64,000 bases of DNA from Narcine bancroftii (Eukaryota). Below, piece by piece: positions 6,242-62,600 of the stretch. A program made the translations under genes and the position numbers. Position 1 is the stretch's first letter. Each line of letters starts with the position of its first letter. The stretch covers positions 172,856,001 through 172,920,000 of the forward strand of contig NC_091474.1 in assembly GCF_036971445.1 (NCBI RefSeq), written 5' to 3'. The notes beneath the pieces are model-generated. The model was not told the origin of the DNA, searched no databases, and saw only the letters and a program-made list of their open reading frames with translations.

Positions 6242-6345
6242 CATTATGTTAATACATAATGACTAATTGATGGATCTTTTAAGTATATATATATATATAT
6301 ATACTTAAAAGATCCATCAATTAGTCATTATGTATTAACATAATG
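6242..6345. repeat. Perfect 104-bp palindrome (42-bp arms around (TA)10)
   Basis: cattatgttaatacataatgactaattgatggatcttttaag + (TA)10 + the exact reverse complement of the left arm. Confidence 0.95.
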
Positions 6346-8150: not shown

Positions 8151-8163
8151 TGGTGACCCCAAC
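8151..8163 (+). promoter_or_regulatory. Primer-binding site, tRNA-Trp type
   Basis: tggtgaccccaac after a 2-nt spacer following the 5' LTR; matches the tRNA-Trp PBS TGGTGACCCCGAC with one mismatch. Confidence 0.8.
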
Positions 8164-21579: not shown

Positions 21580-24500
21580 TGTAGCGGTGCGCTTGGAGGG
21601 AGTGGGCAGAACTAGCGCTAACAGCTCCCGTCTTGTGACAGCAAGACACAACAGCCTCCTACCTACTGGCAACTAACCACTACAGCCATGAAGCATAATG
21701 ACGCAGCAGCACCCATAGGTCTACTGAGAAGCCCAGGTCTACTCAACGTAGCTACGTCATGAGGACGTTAGCACTTCAGCTGTCATGACGCCAGGTCACA
21801 TATTGTGTGTCTATATCAAGCCTGATAACACTGTGCAGTGCACTGGAATTCACTGGTAGTGTGTTGTGCTGATGGCTGGCTCCACCCCCATCTGCTCACA
21901 TATAACCCTGGTTTCCTGCCTAAACACAGAACCCTTCTGAAGACCACTGTGGGACTCTATCCCCAGTTATAAGCTAATAAAAGCATTTGTTTTTCCCTCC
22001 AGTCATGAGAGCTTTTATTCACGCTACAATTTTATTAGCTTATTCCCTAAATGATACAAGCGCTACACAAGCCAGACATGCTGATGATGAACCCTCTGTC
22101 CCCCAACGTGACTAAGGAGTTCACGTACTAGCTAGACTGCTTCCAGGCCTACCAGATGGCAACCAGAGACATTTTCCACACCGATGAACTCAGGAGATCC
22201 GCACTTGTTTTGAGGGTAGGAACGAAAGGGTATGAAGTCATCAGGGACTGCACTACATATGATGCTGCCATTGAGCTGTTGAAGGCACATTACCTAAAGG
22301 CGCTAAATGACGTACTAGCAAGGAACTGACTTGCTCTACATCACCAACGACCAGGAGAGACCATCGATGATTACCTTCTGGATCTGTGGACGCTATTAAA
22401 AGCCACTAATTTCCCCCTCTCGGCTGAAGCCCAAACAGCTTTTAACTATCTCTGGAATCCAATTGCAAAAACTGCCATGCATGCGGTGGTCGAGAATGTA
22501 CCTTCCCAAGTGGAAAGCGACACTTCAGACGTAGCCCTGGCCACTACCCTCAACTAGACAGGCAGGCTGTTTGCATTTTTTTCGCAGACATTACAAGGCC
22601 ACGAGCTCTGGAACCCATTGGTGGAAAAGGAGGCTCAAGCCATTGTAGAAGCCTTGAGGCACTGGAGACACTACCTGGGTAGTAGGAAATTTACACTCCT
22701 CACTGACCAGTGCTCTGTCGCATTCATGTTTAATAATGTCAAGATAGGAAAAATCAAAAATGAAAAAATGACAAGGTGGAGGATCGAGTTCTCCATCTAC
22801 AATTATGACATTGCCTATCAGCCAGGAGCCCTTAATGACCATCCAGATGCCTTATCCAGAGGAAGCTGTGCCTCTGCACACACTGGCCCACTGTGGTCTC
22901 TGCATAATGAGCTCTGCCATCCAGGGGTTACCCACATGGCTCATTTTGTCAAGGCGCGTAATCTGCCCTACTCCATGGAAGACGTCAGGGAAATGACCAG
23001 GTCTTGCCAGGTCTGTGCGAACTGCAAGCTGCACTTCTACCGCCCCACAAAGATGCATCTGATCAAGTCATCCAGGACTTCTCCCCTCCATGAACAAGAA
23101 CACCTTCTTCCTCTCTATCATTGATGAGTACTCCCGCTTCCTGTTCGCCATTCCATGTCCAGACACATCCACTTCATCAGTCATAAAGGCCCTAGATTCC
23201 ATTTACACCCTGTTCGGGTATCCCAGCTATATTCATAGCGACCAGAGCTATGTCAGTTCCTCATCCAGCATGACTACTAAGGAACAGGCAGTTTGAAAAG
23301 GAGAATGCCACAGTCTGGATGGCTGACAAACTGGCCCTGATGTCAAAAGGTCTTTCAGACTCATGCTGGCAGAAAGTCCTCCCTATGGCAGTCTATTCCA
23401 TCTGGTCGCGGCTATGTACCGCGACCAATGCTACTCCTCACGAGCTTCTATTCAATTTTGAAAGAAGGCCGGTATCAGGAACTACACTCCCAACCTGGCT
23501 CACCACCCCTGGTCCAGTCCTCCTCAGGAAACACACGAGGAGAAGCAAGACCAACCCCCGGTGGAAATGGTGAAAATGATACATGCTAATCCCACATACG
23601 CCTATGTGGAGTACCCGGGTGGCAGGGAGGACACCGTCTCAATCACGGACCTGGCACCTGCCTCAAGTGCCTTGCGAAATATGGAGCTCATTCTTGCCAC
23701 CCCCAGTCAGGACCTCAGGGGATCCGGTTCACGAGGAAAGTGCATCCCCTTCCACTTGAGCTGGAGACCCAGCCCACCTCTCCTACCTCACAAGGGGACC
23801 AGGAGTCCCAAGGAATCCAAGGTTTCTCGGTGCTAAGGTGCTCCACCAAGATCTCCAGACCCCTGGACCACTTAAATTTGTAAATTTGTAAATAAGTGTA
23901 TATTTTTCAACCATTTTTTTCTGGACCCATGTTCTCTGTCTTCATTCACAGTCCCTAAATTCTACAGGAAGGGATGAATGCAGTGAACTGGGATTCACTG
24001 GTAGGGTGTTGTGCTGATGGCTGGCTCCGTCCCCATCTGCTTACATATAACCCTGGTTTCCCACCTAAACCCTGAGCCCTTCTGAAGACTACACTGAGAC
24101 CCTACCCTCAGCTATAAGCTAATAAAAGCATTTGTTCTCCCTCCAGTTGTGAGAGTTTTTATTCACACTACACACTGTAATAAATGCTGCTCTCTTCGCT
24201 GGCTGGCAACTTCAAGTGTGGTCTCGTTATTTCAACATAATAGCATATGAGCACAATCATTATCTGCCACATTGGTGACCCCGACGGGTCTAGCCGGTAG
24301 CTAGACCCTACAACGAACAAGCTCAATGGCATCGTGCCAATGAGCCAGCCATAAATAATGGACACGCTCCATGGCCAAACTCAAATTAATTTGCTACAGC
24401 AACGCACCAATGAGCCACAACAAGCACCTTGCTTGCAGTAACGCTCCAATGAGCCAGGAACAAATGACGGACAGCCTGACCCAACTGAACCTACTTTGGG

Positions 24501-26319
24501 ACTGCTCCAATTGACCGTAGCTACGAATGACTCCAAATCAATCAGTGTCACATCTCAGGACAGCAAATAAATTACCAGGAGGCTAGTTGCTCTTCCCTTC
24601 ACGCTCAACTGAACGAACAGCAAGGGGCATCGTAGAAGGTTTGGAAGTTCAAAAGACTGTTTTACAACCTACTCACTCACTTTGGTGACTTGAGTAGGCC
24701 AAGCTCTTGTCTGGTGTGCCTCATGAACTGCACAACAAGTCTGGCCAACCAGTTGCAAGGTCAGGGGAAGGCTTATCAGCAACATTTTAAACTGTCTGCA
24801 GACATCAAAAGGCTGGGTGATTTTGCTCAACACAGCATAGCAGTAGCGCCTCAGTTTCTCCAGAATGTTACCACATCCAGCGCTCCATTGAGCTGAAGTG
24901 GTTGTTTATCAGCAAGTTGTCTGTAGCTGGAAGCACAGACATTTAAAATTTGCCTGTTTGAACTTTGGGAGGTTTGCATCTCAGCAGCTGTGACCGGAGG
25001 GAGCACCCGCCACCCCCCACCTCCCCACCATGTTTCACCATCCTCCCTCAGGAAGACCACTCAACCTGGGAACAACTAGCAACCCCTCCTTGAGAGAAGA
25101 AGCCTGCAATCCGGGAGACAACTACTTACTCCCCTGAGGCAAGATCACGTGACCCAGGGGGTAGCCAGCCACACCCCCCTCCCATGATGGAAGATTCTGT
25201 GACCCAGGTAGTAACCTGTGAACTAAAGCTGAAAAAAGCCACCTGTCGATGATGCCACTGAGACCTTTTCCTGCCAACAAGGCAGATTGTAATAGGTTTT
25301 CAGTCCCTCGCTCAGCACAACATTGCCTGTCGTTGATGCTGCTGTGACCTTTCCTGCAGACTAGGCAGATAGTACAGGTTTTTCAGTCCCAGCACACTAC
25401 TGATCAGCATAGCACAGCTTACCGACCTGACGGCTAGCCAGTGGACTTCCAGCAGTAATGGACAGTCGCTCTACAGACCACCACCTACCAGCTCCTGTGT
25501 GTCATTGCAGACTTCGGCTGCTACCTGACTTTCTACAGTTAACTTTTTCCTACCAGACTTTGAGATTAGCACTATGGACTCTCATATTTACCAACAACCT
25601 CCTAACAGTATGGACTTTCACTTTTGGTAATGCATCTCAAATGTTTGATAATGTTTTGGATTTCTCATGTGTCTTAACTGTAATTATCTGTAATCAGATT
25701 TTTTGCAACTGCCTGTGGTTACCTTTTGCATACGTTAAGTGTCTCACATGATTCCTACTGTAATTTATTTGTGTTGTCAATAATTGGTTGTGGCTTTCTA
25801 CTTGATTGAGCCCTGTTAGGATGTACAGTACATATCACTTCCTCCCCCAGCAACCTTCATACACGATGCTTCGGCACCGCACCACAAATGGCAAGTCTGC
25901 TCGGTTCTATGGTGGAATGTCCGCACTAATTCGGAACCGCTGAGTCAGTCGGTCGCTTACCGCTGGTTCTGTAGGGAGCTGTGTTGCGGTACACTTGGAG
26001 GGAGTGGGCAAAACCAGAGCTAACAGCTCCTGTCTTGTGACAGCTAGATATAACAGCCTCCTATCTAATGGAATCTAGCCACTACAGCCACGAGGAATAG
26101 TGACTCAGCAGCACCTGTACGTCTACTGAGAAGCCCTGGCCTACTCAACGTAGTTATGTCATGGGGTCGTTAGCACTTCAGATGTCATGACATGTTGTGT
26201 GTCTATATCAAGCCTGATAACACTGTAATAAATGCTTCTCCCTTCGTTAGCTGACAACTTCAGGTGTGATCTCATTATTTCAACATGATGGTGTACGACC
26301 TCAAACATCATCCACCACA
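21580..26319 (+). mobile_element. Non-autonomous LTR retrotransposon with a non-coding interior; 5' LTR interrupted by a Gypsy element
   Basis: LTRs 21580-24271 (split) and 25982-26319, TG...CA; TSD gagt/aagt; PBS tggtgaccccgacg (24273-24286, tRNA-Trp); no gag/pol motifs seen in 24290-25980. Confidence 0.85.
21834..24172 (+). mobile_element. Gypsy element A (no tRNA PBS), PR and RT deleted
   Basis: LTRs 21834-22028 and 23979-24172; perfect 5-bp TSD CACTG. The gag start is joined (~22395) to RNase H (EKEAQAIVEALRHWRHYL) and integrase (HPGVT..C..C, IDEYSRF). Purine tract ggaagggatgaa precedes the 3' LTR. Confidence 0.93.
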
Positions 26320-33935: not shown

Positions 33936-36900
33936 TGTGGTGAACTGCTGTACACTTTATTCTGGTTTTGCCCCATCCTGTGGCTGGACCCATAGCTCCT
34001 CCCTCTTGACCCTGTATAAAGGCTCCAACACCGTAACCCCTCCCCAGAAACCCTGCATCACAGCACATGATGACCTTCCAAGTTTATTGTAAATTCTTTT
34101 GAGTTATTGATAGTGCATCGATTTTATTTACAATATTTTTTTTCAATGATGGAACAATTCTTGAAGCCTGATGAGCTGGAGATCGAACCACAATCGGCAG
34201 AAACCTGACTGGTTTAAACTCTGGCTATGCTGCTTTGTGGTCTTCCTACAAAACTTCACCAGAGTCGTGGCTATAGAGGCAAACAAACTGAACCTACCCA
34301 TCTCCCGGGTCGGACATTGAGTGTTCCCGATGATCAGGGACACCTCAGCGCACATGGAGGAAATGAACATACTCAAGGACCAGTACAGGAAGGAAGTTAA
34401 TGAGGTATAAACCAGGCACATGCTGGCTACCCACAGACAGCGACCATAAATCGAGCAACAAGTTCCTTTGTGCCCTGCATGGACTTGCATGAGTGTGCAA
34501 CTTCTAGTCAGTGCTGGCTGCCCAGAACAAGGAGGACATGATCCAGGATGCCTATGCTGCAGGTGTCAGGTCAGACTAAGCGCGCCAGAGGCTACTCGAG
34601 CAGAGAAGTTAGACTTAAGAGGGGTGATCAACCTCATGAAATCGCTGGAGATCACACTCTGTAACATTGATGCATACTCGGCAAATGGCGTGTGGGCCAC
34701 CATCTTGGGACTCAGGTCCACAGCCAGCAGCCCGCTACCACATTCAATAAAGCAAACATACCACAGCTGCAGTATCCCACAAGCACCTGAAGTGCTACTT
34801 CTGTGGCCAACCAAAGCATCCCAAAAGCACTGCTTGGTGAAAGATGCTATGTGTGCAGTGCAAGATAAAAGGGCACTACACGAAGGTATGTCAATTGCAG
34901 CTGCCTTCCAGCTCCAGCGCTGCCGCATGTGCAGCACGGGAGCTGTCATCTTAGCTGCCACCAACTTCATCTTGGATGCAACCAACTCTGGGGACAACTA
35001 CACCACCGCATGGGCACCACCATTATCCTCCCAGACCATGAGTCAACACAGGCCAGACTGTGAACTGACACTAGCCTCTGATGTGCTGGAACAAAACAGT
35101 CCACATCAACCCTTCTGGTCTATGATGGACATCTCAATCTCAATCAACAATCAGGTGACAAGATGCCTTTTTGATAGCGGGAACACTGAGAATTTTATCC
35201 ACCCCAACACGGTGCAGCATCAATCCCTTAAAGAAAAGCCAGTAAGCTATAAAGTTGCCTTGGCCTCAAAGTCCCACTCAGCCAAGATCCGCAGCTACAT
35301 TACCATGACACTGACCATGCAGGGCATGACTTACAGGAACTCTAAACTCTTTATCATACCACAGCTCTGCGCACCAGTGCTGCTGGGGTTGGACTTTCAG
35401 TGCCATCTCAAGAGTGTCACAATGCAATACGATGGTCCCCTGACCCCCCAATAGTCAGCAACCTGTGGTTTATCAGCATGCCACCCCTTCCTCCGCTATC
35501 CCAACCGACACGCGGTTTATCTACTCTCTGTATCGACCTCCCCACCACTGTTCGCGAACCTCACCTCCAACTGTAAACCAGTCACTACAAAAAGCAGACG
35601 ATACAGTGAAGGGGACAGGGCATTTATTAAAGCAAAAATCCGGTGACTACAGAATGAGGGGATCATCGAGCCCAGTACCAGCCTGTGGAGAGCCCAAATA
35701 GTGGTGGTCAAGGGTGGACACAGGATGCCGATTGATTATAGCCAGACTATTAACTGCTATATACAGCTGGATGCGTATACCCTCCCTCACATTGCGAACA
35801 TGGTCAATTAAATTGCCCACTATCATGTCTTTTCCACGATGACCTGAAATCAGTCTACCACCAGCTTCCCACCCATCTGAGGAGAGCCCGTACACCACCT
35901 TTGAGGCAGATGGCCACCTCTACCATTTCCTAAAGGTCTCTGTTTTCCAGCGGAGGGTGGACCAAAATGACCTGCGTGCTGCCTTCCCCTACTTGGATAA
36001 CGTCAAGATCTGTGGCCATCAAGCAATCCAATACCTAGGTATTAGACTACGAATCACCATTTAAATGGCAAACACAAGCAATCCGATACCTAGGTATTAG
36101 ACTAGATAATAATCTAGGCCATCTATACAGATTAGATTATCAGCCATTAATAAAAAAAATTCCAAGATGACTTAGAACAATGGAAAGATTTACCACTAAC
36201 ACTGATAGGAAGGGTTAATTGCATTAAAATGAATATCTTCCCAAGGATACAATACCGATTTCAAGCGTTACCAATTCCCTTAACAGAGAAATTCTTCAAT
36301 GAGCTAAAGAAAATAATAAGGAAATTCTTATGGAAAGGGTGGAAACCGAGGATAGCGCTAGATAAATTAACAGAATGGTACAAACAAGGGGGCTTACAGC
36401 TACCAAACTTAAATAATTATTATAAAGCAGCACAATTAAGATATCTATCAGATTTTTATCAAACAAGGGATAAACCAGATTGGACCAGGTTAGAGCTAGA
36501 TAAAATAGGGGAGAAGGTACCTGAACATATGCTATATAAGTGGGATGAAAAACTGGTGCAACAGGGGAATTCACCAGTACTGCACCATCTGCTCAACATT
36601 TGGAAGAAGATTCACGTAGAAAGGAAAAAAAACAAATTACCAACTTCCAAAATTATTATTGATGCAAAATCAACTAATCCCTTTCACAATAGATAACCTT
36701 TCCTTTAGAGAATGGGAGAGAAAAGGGATCAAAAGAATAGAAAATTGTTTTTTGGGAAATAATTTATTATCTTTTGAACAAATAAAGTACAAATATGGAA
36801 TAACTCACGGTACAATGTTTGCATACCACCAACTGAAAACCTACTTAAAGGACAAATTGGGAAGCGGGCTGAGGTTACCAGAAGGAAGCAGCTTTGAATA

Positions 36901-39613
36901 TGTGATTACAGACACAATGATAATTAAAAGATTTATAACAAGCATGTACATCAAGTTGCAAGAGAAAGAGAATGATGAAATAAGCTGTAAACCCAAAGAA
37001 AAGTGGGAACAGATCTAAACATAAAGATAAAAAATGAAAAATGGGAAAAGCTATGCTCTGGAACTATAAGAAATACAATAAACATGAGGTTATGCATGAT
37101 ACAATATAATTGGTTACACAGGCTATATATCACGCCCCAAAAGTTAAATAAATGGGACACAACAGTATCAGATAGATGTTTTTGCTGTAAGAAGGAAACG
37201 GGAACAACAATACATGCAATTTGGGCATGTGAGAAAGTGGAAAAGTTTTGGGAAGAACTAAATCAGGTATTAAATAAAATTACAAAAAGCCACATACCAA
37301 AATATCCAGAGATCTTTCTTCTAAGTAATATTAGAAGTAAAGAATTAGGCCTCAAACTGGATGAAGCACAAAAAAGATTTATTATGATAACCTTAGCTGT
37401 AGAAAAAAAATGTATAATGTCAACCTGGAAATCAGAAGAGAGCCTGAGAGTACAGCAATGGTACATAGAAATGAATAAATGTATTCCATTGGAAAAAATA
37501 ACATATAATTTAAAAAATAAACTCACATTATTCAAACAAATTTGGGAACCGTACATGGAACACAACAGAGAGGGCCTACCATGGACCTCCACCCCCTAAA
37601 ATGACAGAATGAGAAGAAGACGAAATGAACTGACCCAGTGTGTAAAAGTAGATGACACAATTTTCTTGTTTATTTTCATTGTGTGATGACATTGTTTAAT
37701 GTATCGTATATGTTGAACGTTTAGTGGGTAGGGAGGGGGTTGGGAAGGAGGGAGGGAAGGGAGGGGGGAAAAGGGGAGAAAATGACACTGTATATTCAAG
37801 AAGGAAATGTTTGTATTTTGGTTAATATGGTTCATAGTGTGAAAAATAAAAACATTTTTTAAAAATGGCCATGACCTGCAAGATCATGATGCCAACCTCC
37901 AGAAATTCCTCACAGCAGCTAAAGACCTAAACCTCACCTACAACATCGATAAATATGTTTTCCACACTACCCACCTGTCAATCCTTGGCTGTGTTGTGGA
38001 GAATGGGGTTATTGGCCCCGATCCCAACCCCATGTGCCCTCTGTTGGAGTTCCCCCTTCCCTACAGCCTCAAGGTACTGAAAAGTGCCAGGGGTTCTTTT
38101 CTATTATGCCCGGTGGGTGCCCAATTATGTGGACAAAGCCCACCCCCTTATCCAGTCCACATCCTTCCCCCTGACAAGAGAGGCCCAGGGAACCATTTGA
38201 TGAATAAAAGAGGACTTTGCTAAATCTGCAATGTATGTGGTAGATGAATCTGCCCATTTCAGGTCAAGAGCAACGCAGTCAATTTCACCCTGGCCACCAC
38301 CCTGAACCAGGTAAGTCGGCCAGTGGCCTTTTTCTCCTGTAACCTCCAAGGCCCTGAAATCCAACTCTCCTCCATCGAGAAGGAGGCTCAGGCAATAGTT
38401 GAGGCAGTATGGCACTGGAGGCATTACCTGGCCTGTAGATACTGTACCCTGTTCATGGACCAAAGGACCATGGCATTCATGTTTAACAATAAACAGCGGG
38501 GTAACTATAACTATGATATTCAGTATCGGCCAGGGAAGCTTAACAAGCCCCCAGACTCCCTATCCTGAGGATCATGTGCCAATGTCCAGATAGACTACCT
38601 CAAGATCTTCCACAATGACCTCTGCCACCCAGCTGACACGAGACTTTTCCACTCCATAAAATCTCGTAACCTGCCATACTCCATCAGGGAGGTCAGAGAC
38701 ATGTTGAGGGACTGCTGAGTCTGCGCGGAGTGCAAACTGCACTTCTATCAACCAGATAGGGCACACCTGGTAAAAGCCATATTGTCATTTGAATGCCTGA
38801 GTATAGATTTCAAAGGCCTCCCTCCCCTCAACCAACCACAAAATATATTTCCTCATGGTCATCGATGAGTATTCATGTTTCCCTTTTGCCATCCCTTGCC
38901 CAAACATGACCTCCACCACAGTCATCAACTTGTATACTCTATTTGGGTACCCATCATACATCCACAAGACTGGGGGTTCTTGTTCATGAGCTGCAAGCTG
39001 CACCAATACCAGCAGGGCCACTAGTTATAACCCCCGTGGGAATGGCCAGGTGGTGAGGGAGAATGCCCACCATATGGAAGGTCATCCTCCTTGTCAAGTT
39101 CAGGGGGCTGCCAGTCTCTCACTGGCAAGAGGTCCTTCCCAAGGTACTCCACGCAATCAGGTCACTGCTATGTACTGCCACCAATGCTACCCCGCACAAA
39201 TGAATTTTCTCCTTCCCCAGGAAGTCACCATACCCCCAGCAAGTCGACACAGCGCGGGAGGTCCAGAAAGAATCAACGACTGCAGCTTACAGCAGAGCAC
39301 CCGACTCTCTGTCGGTCTTAATGAAAGACCAGATCGTTGGACAGACTTAACCTCTAAGACTTTGTGCCCCACATCACTTCTCCCAGACAAAAAAAATGGT
39401 GAATATAGTGAACTACTGTACATTCTTTAATCTGGCTCCACCCCATCCTGTGGCTAGACCCGTGGCTCCTCTCTCTTGACCTGTATAAAAGCTCCAACAC
39501 CACAACCCCTCCCCAGAAAGCCTGGTCACAGCATAGGACGACCTTAAAGTTTATTGTAAATAAAAGCCTATAGTTCTGTAACTCTAGTCTTTTGAGTTAT
39601 TGATAGTGCATCA
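33936..39613 (+). mobile_element. Gypsy element B (no tRNA PBS), interrupted by an L1
   Basis: LTRs 33936-34120 (with an internal deletion) and 39404-39613; TSD gtgtg/atgtg. Domains: gag (LKPDELEIEPQS), PR (CLFDSGNTENFI, PVLLGLDFQ), RT (IDYSQTIN, YLDN), RH (EKEAQAIVEAVWHWRHYL) and IN. Confidence 0.92.
36020..37865 (+). mobile_element. 5'-truncated L1 inserted in the RT of Gypsy B
   Basis: 7-bp TSD TGGCCAT (36013-36019, 37866-37872); ORF2 C-terminal ORFs at 36229-37599 (DRCFCCKK..HAIWAC, LEKITY); AATAAA and A-tail. Related to the L1 at 59629-64000. Confidence 0.93.
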
Positions 39614-51992: not shown

Positions 51993-54900
51993 AACTCTCT
52001 GTACCTGCAGGAAGACCACCTAAGGGGCTGACTCCACCTGGCCTGCTGTCAATCAGCTGACCTGAATATCAACCTGAGCTGGCCCCTCCTGAGCCAGTCA
52101 AATGGGGAGCCACCAAGCCTTGGACTAGTGTTCAGAGTTTTACTGGAATAAAGCCTGTTGTACAGTCTTTAAGTTTTGTGCTTGCTTGCTGCTACCTCAG
52201 CACACCAGAATTTATTCCAGTAAAAATTTTTAAAGAGGGACCATGGAGACGATCTGGAGCCTGGAGATCGACCCCCAACACCCAGATGCCCAGGCATACT
52301 TTAAGATCTGGAAGCACGCGATCGAGGTGATCATCCTAACACAAGCTGAGGCGATCAACACCAACCAGAAACGGCACATGATGCTCCACAATAAGCTGGG
52401 CCCACGAGTTTTCCAGGCCATCAAGAACTGCTCGGACTACAGACCTGCGATGGCTGTACTAGAGAGCATGTACAAGCATCCAACAAATGTGATCTGTGCC
52501 CCGTACCTGCTCAGCACCCAGGTGAGACGGCAGATGCCTATTTGGGGGACCTGCGTGAGCTAGTCTGCCCGTGCCGAACCAAGACTGGAGTGACCCAAGG
52601 GGAAGTGGAGCAACTGATCTGGGATGCCTGCATGTGAGGGCTGCGCTTGAGGAGCGCCCGACAGCAGCTGCTGGAGGAAAGTATGGCCTCACTTACAAGG
52701 ACAATGGAGGTAGTACGCTCCCTGGAGGCTGCAGCTGATCATCATGCCGAGGTCTTTAATGCCCAACTCCCCCAACCCCAGGCCTGGCAGATGGAAATGA
52801 CCGCCGTCGCCAAAGGGTTCTACATGGAAGAGACGATCACAGCTGTCGGTGCAGCTTGCCCCTGCAAGTACTGTGGGTCCTGGAATGTGTCCAACAGGCG
52901 ATCCCACAAATGCTGTCCAGCAAGGAACTTGCCTTGTTCCCAATGGAGGAAGAAAGGCCACATCACAAAGGTGTGCCTTTCCAGGCCCGTTGGAAGTGCA
53001 GCGACCCTCTGCAACCAACTGGGAGCTCTCCCAAACATTGCCACGTGTGAGGACTGGGTAACGCCATTATTCACCCCTCCACTTCCACCCTCACCACTGA
53101 TGTCACTTCCAGCCCAGCCACTGACCCACACAGCTGAAGTGTGCTCACCCCAGGCACCACCATTTTCCTCCCGACAACTTCCACTGCATCGAAGACGTCA
53201 CTTCCACTCGCTCGGATGACATCATCTCTAGCTTCATTGCTGGTCGGTCACCCAACTGCACCAATGCCATGTGCATCCACTGGGCACCGCCATCTTGAGC
53301 CAGCTAGCTCCTGACAGCCACAACACGCTCACATCGCCTATCCAACTCACCCCACACCCTGAAAGGAAGCCGCTGGACGCTACTCGCCACACATCCATCG
53401 GGCAGCAGTGACTCAGTCCCTGAGATGGTCCTAGCGTCCCCTTAAAAGGGGACATTCCCCATGGACTTGGGTGCTCAATGATGGGCATTGCTGTTAATGG
53501 GAAGGTAACAAAATGGCTGTTCAATAGCGGTAGTACTGAGAGCTTAATGAACTAGAATGTTGCCTGGACATTAAAAATCTATCCCACAAACTTTTCCATT
53601 GCTTTCGCAGCCCATGACCACTCCATCATGGCCCTCAGGCGCTGCTCAGTGGAATTGACAGTGGGGGGGAGGTCATACCAAGGGTTCATACTCTTGGTCA
53701 TGCCCCAGCTCTGTGCCCCAGTCCTCTTAGGGCTGGACTTCCAGTGCAACCTCCAAAGTCACATCCTCACCTTTGGCTGCCTCCTTCCCCTACTCGCACT
53801 CCACAGCACACAGCCCTGTGACTGCCCCCAGTTCACCTGCGGCCTCTCCATACTACGGGTAACCCCTTCAGCCCTCTTCAACTGCCTTACATCGTACTAC
53901 AAGCCCATAGCTGCCAAGAGCAAGCGCTAATGCGCGGCCAACATGGCCTTCATTAAGAAGAAGTGAGGCAGCTTCTGGCGGAAGGTATCATACAGCCCAG
54001 CACCAGTCCCTGGAGAGCCCAAGTCCTAGTGGTAAAAGGGAGTAGCAAACCAAGGATGGTCATCGATTATAGCCAGACCATAAACTGGTAACAGCCAACT
54101 GGACGCCTACCCCTACAGCTGACATGGTCTTCTCGACAATTGACTTAAAGCCGACCTGCAGGCCTATCCACGCCCAGGATAAACTTTGAGGCATATGGGT
54201 GCCTCTACCAGTTCTGCCAGGTCATGTTTGGGGTCACTAACGGGGTCTCTGTTTTCCAGCGGGAGATGGACTGCATGGCAGGCCAGCAAAACCTAATAGC
54301 AACCCTCCCTTACTTGGGCAATTCCACCATCTGCAGCCATGACCAGCAGGTCCACGATGACAACCTGGATTGATTTCTCTGGACGGCCAAGGAGCTGAAC
54401 CTCACTTACAACAAAGAGAAGTGCATGTTCAGCACCACCCGCCTCTCCATTCTAGGGTACCTCGTGGAACATGGTATCATCGGTCCTGATCCAGAACGCA
54501 TGCAGCCATTAATGAAACTGCCCCCCCCCCCTATATGATCAATGTCCTCTGCAGGTGCCTTGCGCTTTTCTCCTATTACTCCCAGTGGGTCCCCCGTTTT
54601 TTGGACAAGGTCCGCTCACTGGCCCAAGCCACCACCTTTCCCCTCCCCCCTGAGGTGCAAGCAGCTTTCATTCATATCACCGATGCCACAAAGCATGCAG
54701 TGGATGAGGACACACCATTCCAGGTGGAGTGCGATGCCTGTGATGTTGCTCTCATGGCCATCCTCAACCAAGGGGGCCGACCCATGGCCTTCTTCTCCAG
54801 GTCCCTCCACGGTTCTGAGCTCAGGCACTCCACCATTGAAAAGAAGGCCCAGGCGATCAGGAAAGCAGTCCACCACTGGCACCACTATCTGGCAGACAGG

Positions 54901-59628: not shown

Positions 59629-62600
59629 CTTTTTTTTTGATTTTTTATTTTTCACACCATAAACCACATTGACCAAGATACATACATTTTCCTTTTCAAA
59701 TATATACAGTGTCATTTTCTCCCCCCCCGTCCCTCCTCCCATCCCACCCTCCCAACCAACCCCCCCATTCATTTAAAGTACAAAATCTAAGACACATTAA
59801 ACCAGTCAAACAATGTTGTCATTCAATAAAAATAAACAAGAAATTCCACTAAGTCAATTCTTTTCATTTCCTTCTCCTTTTGTTCATTTAGGTGGTAAAT
59901 GTCCCCGGTAGGTTTTCTCTATTGTGTTTCATGTATGGCTCCCATATTTGTTCAAATATTTCAATATTATTTCTTAAATTATATGTTATTTTTTCTAATG
60001 TAATGTATAGCCTGTGTATCCAGTTATATTGTATCATACGTAACCTCTTATTTATTGTATTTCTCATCGTTCCAGAGCATAACTTCTCCCATGTTTCCTT
60101 CTTTATCTTTATATTTAAATCTTGTTCCCATTTTTGTTTAGTTTTACCATTTGTTTCCTCATTCTCCTTTTCTTGCAGTTTAATATACATATTTGTTATA
60201 AATCTTTTGATTGTCATTGTATCTGTAATCACATATTCAAAGTTACTTCCCTCTGGTAACCTCAGACTACTTCCTAATTTGTCCTTCAAGTTGGATCTCA
60301 ATTGGTAATATGCCAACACTGTATCTTGAGTTATATTATATTTATCCTTCATTTGTTCAAAGGATAATAATCTATTTCCTGAAAAACAATTTTCTATTCT
60401 TTTGATCCCTTTTTCTCCCATTCTCTAAAGGAAAGGTTATCCATTATAAAAGGGAGTAACTGATTTTGCGTCATTATTAGTTTTGGTAATTGGTAATTTG
60501 TTTTATTCCTTTCTACATGAATCTTCTTCCAAATATTGAGCAGATGATGTAGTACTGGAGAACTCCTACGTTGTACCAATTTTTCATCCCATTTATATAA
60601 TATGTGTTCAGGTATCTTTTCCCCTATTTTATCTAGTTCTAATCTAGTCCAATCTGGCTTTTCCCTTGTTTGATAAAAATCTGATAGGTATCTTAATCGT
60701 GCGGCTCTATAATAATTTTTAAAGTTTGGGAATTGTAAGCCTCCTTGTTTATACCATTCTGTTAATTTATCTAGTGCTATCCTCGGTTTCCCCCCTTTCC
60801 ATAAAAATTTCCTTATTATTTTCTTTAACTCCTTGAAGAATTTCTCTGTCAAGTGTATTGGCAATGCCTGAAATAGCTATAGTATCCTTGGGAAAATGTT
60901 AATTTTAATACAGTTTATCCTTCCTATTAGTGTTAGTGGTAAATCTTTCCAATGCTCTAAATCGCCCTGTAATTTTTTCATTAGTGGATAATAATTGAGT
61001 TTATATAGATGGCCGAGATTTTTATTTATTTGTATACCTAGGTATCTTATTGCTTGCATTTACCATCTGAATGGTGATTCTTTCTTAAATTTTGAGAAAT
61101 CCGCATTATTCATTGGCATTGCTTCACTTTTATTTACGTTAATCTTGTAACCCGACACTTCTCCATATTCCTTCAATTTCTTATATAATTCTTTTATTGA
61201 TATTTCTGGTTCTGTTAAGTATACTATAACATCATCCGCAAATAAACTGATTTTATATTCCTTGTCTTTTATTTTTATCTCTTTTATATTATTTTCTGTT
61301 CTTATCAATTCTGCTAGTGGTTCTATAGCTAACGCGAATAATAAGGGTGATAGTGGGCATCCCTGCCTTGTTGATCTGCTTAAATTAAATTGCTTTGATA
61401 TATATCCATTTACTGTCACTTTCACCAATGGCCCCTTAATCCAATTAATATACTTCTCTGGTAAACTGAATTTTTGCAATACTTTGAGTAAATAATTCCA
61501 TTCTACTCTGTCAAAGGCCTTCTCTGTGTCTAAAGCAACTGCTACTGTTGGCGCTTTACTCCCTTCTACTGTATGAATTAAGTTAATAAATTTACAAATA
61601 TTGTCTGTTGTCCGTCTTTTTTTAATAAATCCAGTTTGGTCTAGACTTACCATTTTAGGTACATAATCTGCTAATCTGTTTGCTAATAGTTTAGCTATCA
61701 TCTTATAATCTGTGTTAAGTAATGATATTGGTCTGTATGACGCTGGTGCGAGTGGATCTTTCCCTTGCTTTGGTATTACTGTAATTATTGCTGTTTTACA
61801 TGAATCTGGTAAGCTTTGTGTTTTGTCAATCTGGTTGATTACTTCCAGGAGGGGAGGAATTAATAAATCTTTAAATGTTTCATAGAATTCTATTGGGAAT
61901 CCATCCTCTCCTGGTGTTTTATTATTTGGTAGTTTTTTTATTATCTCTTGTATTTCTACTATTTCAAATGGTTCTGTTAATTTATTTTGTTCCTCTATTT
62001 GTAATTTTGATAGTTCAATTTTAGTTAAAAATTCATCTATTTTGCCTTCTTTCCCTTCGTTTTCAGTTTGGTATAATTGTTCATAGAATTCTCTAAAGTT
62101 TTCATTAATCTCCGTTGGATTATATGTGATTTGTTTGTCTTTTTTCCTTGATGCCAATAACATTTTCTTAGCTTGTTCTGTCTTAAGCTGCCATGCTAGA
62201 ATTTTATGCGTTTTTTCCCTAGTTCATAATATTTCTGTTTTGTCTTCATTATGTTCTTCTCCACCTTATATGTTTGTAGTGTTTCATATTTTATTTTTTT
62301 ATCTGCCAATTCTCTTCTTTCAGTTGTATCTTCCTTCATTGCTAATTCTTTTTCTATATTTACTATTTCCCTTTCCAACTGCTCTGTTTCCTGATTGTAG
62401 TCCTTCTTCATCTTGGTTACATAACTTATTATTTGCCCTCTAATGAACGCTTTCATTGCATCCCATAGTATAAACTTATCTTTCACTGATTCTGTATTTA
62501 TTTCAAAGTACATTTTAATTTGTCTTTCAATGAATTCTCTAAAATCCTGCCTTTTAAGTAGCATGGAGTTTAATCTCCATCTATACATTCTTGGAGGGAT

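Follow-up and report, generated by a model that had tools for sequence, protein, structure and literature searches.

A clade of animal Gypsy retrotransposons with a primer-binding slot complementary to its own LTR

Element A, a Gypsy retrotransposon from Narcine bancroftii, is a member of a widespread clade of small, single-ORF animal Gypsy elements that lack a chromodomain. We identified it in a stretch of 64,000 nucleotides (contig NC_091474.1, positions 172,856,001 to 172,920,000), which we call the window and to whose first letter all positions refer. Judged by sequence comparison, a primer-binding slot complementary to the element's own LTR is a real and clade-wide feature of this group. 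We lean towards the view that this slot pairs with the LTR instead of with a tRNA and that, in rays, a capped 5' fragment of the RNA, freed by a nick, is the likely primer. Self-priming in some form, be it by a nicked internal primer, by a primer of the Tf1 type, or by the 3' copy of the LTR segment, is very likely.

Structure of element A

Element A occupies positions 21834-24172, and all features given here lie on the forward strand. Its 5' LTR (21834-22028, 195 bp, TG...CA) and 3' LTR (23979-24172) are 87% alike, both end in CA, and are flanked by a 5-bp target site duplication, CACTG (21829-21833 and 24173-24177). The insertion site is the 5' LTR of another Gypsy element (21580-26319), whose TGG primer site (24273-24285) we take to be of the tRNA-Trp type. 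Element A is dead: a broken gag N-terminus (22054-22410) stops after about 117 codons, and it is followed by an internal deletion that took the protease and the reverse transcriptase (RT), and then by a broken RNase H and integrase without chromodomain (22393-23671). Two A's separate the end of the polypurine tract (23966-23978) from the 3' LTR.

A single A lies between the 5' LTR and the candidate primer-binding slot (22030-22043). The initial annotation described this slot as a 14-nt complement of the LTR, and the match is real, since the slot matches the reverse complement of 21969-21982 exactly, and likewise that of the second copy of this partner segment at 24114-24127. The partner contains an AATAAA (21976-21981) and is the predicted end of the primer, with a nick expected after 21982. 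When the LTR end of A was shuffled 1000 times with dinucleotides preserved, the longest complementary run was 9 nt, and, a TA-repeat palindrome aside, the pairs of elements A and C are the longest perfect short-range inverted repeats in the window. A second complement of 21976-21984 lies within the LTR at 22011-22019; it could compete with the slot but is not favoured by folding predictions. Among the best 30 other copies of family A, the slot is identical in 23 and has at most one change in 25, and none of them carries a TGG, which bears out the earlier statement that a tRNA-type site is missing. At 6242-6345, the window also holds an inverted repeat, perfect over 52 bp, that is centred on a (TA)n core.

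Elements B and C and the TGG controls

The same layout had been proposed for two more elements of the window. It is complete in element C, where a 15-nt partner (52138-52152) matches the slot (52211-52225), but is present only in part in element B. There, the slot (34122-34135) pairs over 14 nt with the intact partner of the 3' LTR (39552-39565), whereas its best run with the 5' LTR (33936-34120) is 5 nt because part of the partner was deleted from this copy. Short deletions over the partner, restricted to 5' LTRs, are frequent among family B copies (L393-L412). We set this count aside, since the matches are biased by a query that has a deletion of this kind itself. Element B is also interrupted by a LINE (36021-37866) that is 72-85% like another LINE at 59642-61080. 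The TGG elements of the window (primer sites at 8151 and 24273) had been suggested as controls and behave as such, with self-pairing to their own LTRs of just 3 and 5 nt. The spacing of about 68-70 nt between the TATA-like motif and the partner was upheld as well.

A clade of small animal Gypsy elements

The LTRs, the polypurine tract, and the order of gag, protease, RT, RNase H, and integrase place these elements in Ty3/Gypsy (Metaviridae), element A itself having neither protease nor RT. The best relative of solved structure is Ty3. The closest proteins among the listed matches come from rays and sharks. Next among them are many single polyproteins of 1150-1340 residues from marine metagenomes, insects, an isopod, nematodes, and a sea anemone, and the named hosts are rays, sharks, butterflies, dragonflies, isopods, nematodes, and sea anemones. 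Candidate matches in the genome of N. bancroftii number in the thousands. Some contigs filed under bacterial genomes (L111-L124) carry LTR retrotransposons of animals, a sign that these assemblies are contaminated with eukaryotic DNA.

A quick RT tree of 35 rows grouped 29 of them in one clade with a support of 99, apart from the tRNA-Trp element of the window, two other TGG elements, and three elements with the integrase before the RT. The clade is also separate from the window's tRNA-Trp elements with a DUF7041 gag. Two rows of poor quality and ten redundant ones of the outgroup were left out of the tree. It included no Tf1/sushi sequence, a search with SH3_Tf2-1 for sushi-type references having yielded elements with the integrase before the RT and unclear fragments. 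Hence, it is the lack of a chromodomain, and not phylogeny, that speaks for independence of the clade from chromoviruses: neither Chromo nor SH3_Tf2-1 had a match at an E-value of 0.05 in any of six full-length relatives, all of which have the Gypsy order. The same genome also contains a large family with the integrase before the RT, an order like that of Gmr1 (L447-L465).

Saci-2/lennie, CsRn1, and Mag elements have a similar size of 4-5 kb, short LTRs, and in some cases a fused gag-pol, according to the available text of PMC12471100 and PMC11117352. We rejected an identity with Saci-2/lennie, for which the accessible part of PMC12471100 gives a tRNA site and 4-bp duplications, whereas we found no TGG and a 5-bp duplication. 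Among the stored proteins, none was a named reference sequence of Mag C, MolGy, or another metazoan clade. Rfam gave no match above threshold, the viral contigs no relative, and a search of the protein atlas with gag only generic gag clusters. The clade names 'Selfy' and 'Smart' had no match in the literature searched.

The helix covaries across 27 families

To describe the helix beyond element A, we used one natural copy of each of 27 families (7 from rays and 20 others), drawn from metagenome and genome contigs and from this genome, redundant copies being cut to one per family. The LTR end was set by the second LTR in 12 families and by the layout itself in 15. The families partly share hosts and ancestry, and their counts are not counts of independent events. 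Sequence upstream of gag was present at 29 non-ray loci. A perfect run of at least 10 nt is seen in 21 of these, and five have a slot but a damaged partner; in the remaining three (L051, L056, and L064) we saw no LTR or slot, and they were left out of the family set.

Slot and partner match perfectly over at least 11 nt in 21 of the 27 families. Runs of this length are absent from all 702 pairings across families and occur in 10 of 27,000 shuffles. The copies of the other six families carry a mismatch or a gap. Helix positions 1-14 are paired in 22-27 of the 27 families and pairing is at chance level from position 15, so we dropped the idea of a primer of exactly 11 nt. The initial annotation held that the pairing is conserved while the sequence is not, and the covariation check agrees: with as many as four types of pair at one position, 229 of the 243 variable pairs at positions 5-13 remain paired across the 27 families, compared with a mean of 125 and a maximum of 158 in 10,000 permutations, and with 51-84 in slid registers. 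Stepwise double changes can be seen among close ray families. Slot positions 13-17 (L185-L392) occur in three common variants, two of which add one or two pairs, and these variants follow subfamilies.

The register of the helix is that of a primer. The LTR ends in CA, one base follows, and the slot then pairs with the last A of the partner, in the register of the TGG sites of the window; the partner is thus positioned as the CCA of a tRNA would be. Its 3' end faces U5 and the end of the LTR, which for the ray families supports the self-priming geometry proposed earlier. The four bases past the predicted nick are conserved, and they open a stem in 17 of the 27 families where 8.9 were expected. 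In folding predictions, the local 5' helix has a probability above 0.5 in 23 of the 27 families.

A few positions of the helix are near-fixed, namely three A's at its end and a G at -10 (22 of the 27 families). This would suit a host RNA, a tRNA fragment or another small RNA, that primes synthesis while the match to the LTR is a by-product. We find this explanation barely credible: the slot begins with TTT instead of TGG, and its middle changes family by family in step with each LTR, even within one genome.

RNA ends mapped from retrocopies

Genomic sites at which LTR sequence continues into an A tail were sought by pattern. Family D and its relatives yielded three matches against none in the control, and 14 (including those three) when two mismatches were accepted, again against none. 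Most of these 14 end in an A run 15-19 nt past the end of the helix, and one is an intact LTR. Five of them have target duplications of 12-16 nt, the mark of copies made by LINEs. The copy L425 is a 5'-truncated copy of the 3' end of the element. In family A, two of 14 pattern matches run up to the base equivalent to 22000 and then finish with nine A's, which sets the poly(A) addition site at 22000-22001, and one of the two has a 14-nt duplication. These retrocopies show that the AATAAA in the partner works as a poly(A) signal in ray families D and A, a function that the initial annotation had assumed. An initial poly(A) pattern for family A gave no match, a looser clade-wide pattern added nothing further, and three contig sets from RNA runs aligned to A revealed neither a start nor an end. 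Four retrocopies (L418, L420, L422, and L423) derive from host RNAs and stop at a family D LTR's poly(A) site, indicating that host transcripts borrow poly(A) signals from these LTRs. In the young family D (L273-L392), gag and protease are further separated by a 45-nt tandem repeat (at about 1220-1560 of the element) whose copy number varies while the reading frame is preserved.

Two retrocopies from two subfamilies of the D group (L421 and L431) inform on the start of the RNA. They are inserts of about 72 nt with a target duplication, and no other duplication-bearing copy begins in the LTR upstream of the partner. The two share their first LTR base, an A that lies 32 nt past a TATA-like motif in a TCATTC resembling the initiator consensus. 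One extra G, absent from the flank and from the LTR alike, precedes each insert. Such a G is interpreted as a copied cap in the available text of PMC2912911. Counted from this start, the partner of family D spans +39 to +52 and polyadenylation occurs near +68 to +71. The start is drawn from two retrocopies of one family group, whose templates may have been solo or 3' LTRs, and the packaged RNA need not begin there. In rays, the partner therefore sits inside R, about 39-52 nt into the transcript and not at the 5' end of the RNA, which supports the internal partner put forward earlier. From the TATA-like motif to the helix end, the distance is 82 nt in A (motif at 21901-21906) and B, and 84 nt in D. 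This similar spacing suggests a candidate start of A near 21931.

A plain Tf1-type arrangement would have the packaged RNA start just before the helix, its first 11-18 nt being the primer and the upstream start serving another transcript. A poly(A) copy of family A (L432) does have its start 4 nt ahead of the helix and would imply a primer of 18 nt. It begins at a TCAGTT-like motif seen repeatedly among ray families, several of which have initiator-like TCAGT/C motifs at this place; this copy has no target duplication, however, unlike the two clean retrocopies with a cap-like G, which both start 52 nt before the helix end. The G at -10 in 22 of the 27 families and a family (m043) that pairs over exactly 11 nt are also consistent with such a short primer. 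Yet, helix positions 12-14 pair in 22-25 of the 27 families and are mostly pyrimidines, which are poor start bases. The TATA-like motif of ray families is distant as well, at 80-87 nt before the helix end in six of them and at 70 nt in the seventh, whereas several invertebrate families have TATA-like runs, AT-rich and weak, at 37-44 nt, which would place their starts near the helix. We regard the Tf1-type arrangement as unlikely overall, and it may hold for invertebrate families even if it does not for rays.

A possible second role in hiding the poly(A) signal

The AATAAA of the partner had also been proposed to be masked by the slot. Folding predictions for ray families A and D are in agreement with this: the predicted exposure of AAUAAA is close to 0 with the slot, and 0.92-0.99 (A) or 0.16-0.89 (D) without it. 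The proposal does not extend to the whole clade, since the helix of 8 of the 27 families contains neither AATAAA nor ATTAAA, and masking thus cannot account for the helix throughout the clade. In rays, concealing the 5' poly(A) signal would at best be a second job of this helix, and on these models the chances of it are about even.

One may go further and suppose that the helix serves the hiding of the 5' poly(A) signal, or packaging, and that something else primes. All seven ray families, and 19 of the 27 overall, have AATAAA or ATTAAA in the helix; the signal works, it is hidden in folds only when the slot is present, and the 72-nt RNAs running from start to poly(A) site show that early termination is a real risk. 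Still, the helix is retained without the hexamer in the other eight families, it is always in the primer register with the 3' end of the partner facing the LTR end, and there is no alternative primer site. We consider this account very improbable.

Occlusion of this kind is known from HIV-1, where a polyA hairpin holds the AAUAAA of R in a duplex and represses its use at the 5' end, according to the accessible part of PMC2645353. Ray families D and A share with it a working poly(A) signal in R at both ends. In contrast, the HIV-1 hairpin can form at both ends and needs 3' enhancers, whereas here the strand that would mask the signal lies outside the LTR and is present at the 5' end only. Unlike in HIV-1, this strand would be the primer site itself.

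How the helix may prime

In the reading that we favour for rays, the RNA would fold a 14-bp helix between partner and slot. By analogy with Tf1, the RT/RNase H of the element may then nick the RNA after the last paired A. The nick would free a capped 5' fragment of about 52 nt as primer, the first (strong-stop) DNA would measure about 47-49 nt, and the strand jump could proceed through the 15-19 nt between the nick and the poly(A) site.

We rejected one extension of this scheme, in which the slot is re-copied from the primer at each cycle: in 108 copies of family D the slot variants follow subfamily haplotypes. The few changes seen in partner or slot are not mirrored in the other segment. To judge by the title of a Tf1 paper cited in PMC6317226, the self-primer of that element is reportedly not removed, and the failure of this prediction need therefore not count against self-priming.

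The primer could instead come from the 3' copy of the partner. The 3' R would pair with the slot, a cut 15-19 nt before the tail would create a new 3' end of the RNA, and this end would prime; the arrangement would also keep both RNA ends together for a jump through the 52-nt 5' part of R. The partner is indeed present at both ends of the RNA because it lies in R, and such a primer would account for the tolerated long leader and for a slot that is not re-copied. However, the local 5' helix, predicted in most families (see above), can form during transcription, and there is no sign of 3' ends that have lost their tail. The 3'-copy primer seems to us distinctly unlikely.

A fuller reading builds on the capped 5' fragment: the clade would represent an independent, animal-wide second origin of tRNA-free priming, in which one helix first hides the 5' poly(A) signal and is then nicked into a capped primer of about 52 nt. 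We advance it tentatively, as possible but short of probable. We know of no LTR element for which a primer of this type has been described.

Comparison with known self-primers

The Tf1 and Tf2 elements of S. pombe, Tj1, and Tf1/sushi elements have no tRNA site; their slot past the 5' LTR pairs with their own LTR RNA, and in Tf1/sushi a cut at the end of the duplex yields a primer facing U5 (available text of PMC7175516, PMC10085805, and PMC4600332). The clade described here resembles them in its slot complementary to the LTR and in the absence of a tRNA site. It differs in several respects. The self-primer of Tf1/sushi is the 5' end of the RNA (the first ~11 nt), whereas the RNA of family D starts 52 nt before the helix end in two retrocopies; Tf1/sushi elements have a chromodomain at their integrase's C-terminus, which is absent from all six full-length relatives; and the partner overlaps the poly(A) signal, unlike in Tf1/sushi. 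Of the two extra duplexes that complete the three-duplex 'pretzel' of Tf1/sushi, only one has any support here: a stem opens directly after the helix in 17 of the 27 families, and a duplex with the sequence 3' of the slot ranks in the top 5% of shuffles in 2 of the 27. The clade thus works like Tf1 self-priming yet departs from it in two defining traits, the 5'-terminal primer and the chromodomain, and is likely a variant of the Tf1 trick.

Tcn1 and TAR (Houba, Osr-1) are predicted plant self-primers with a complement of at least 10 bp between slot and LTR (accessible part of PMC6317226). They belong to plant chromovirus and copia lineages, and the same text contains no mapping of start sites. 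Skipper of Dictyostelium has lost its TGG site and has a chromodomain, and no complement was found in its LTR (accessible part of PMC5006619). In the available text of the literature on self-priming, Tf1/sushi, Tcn1, TAR, and, as an open question, Skipper are the only cases, and neither this clade nor an internal partner is described there; Repbase, Dfam, GyDB, subscription journals, and supplements were outside the scope of this search. The accessible parts of PMC3601003, PMC3670739, PMC6238403, PMC5341516, PMC11117352, and PMC12440569 contain no such description either.

Significance

The retrocopy approach maps the RNA ends of LTRs using the genome sequence alone. To our knowledge, fission-yeast elements are the only ones in which self-priming has been put to the test, and it has been tied to chromoviruses. 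If the reading favoured here is true, the primer need not be the first bases of the RNA, and reverse transcriptases would have escaped tRNA supply and tRNA-fragment defence more than once. It would also offer an answer to how an LTR distinguishes its 5' from its 3' poly(A) signal.
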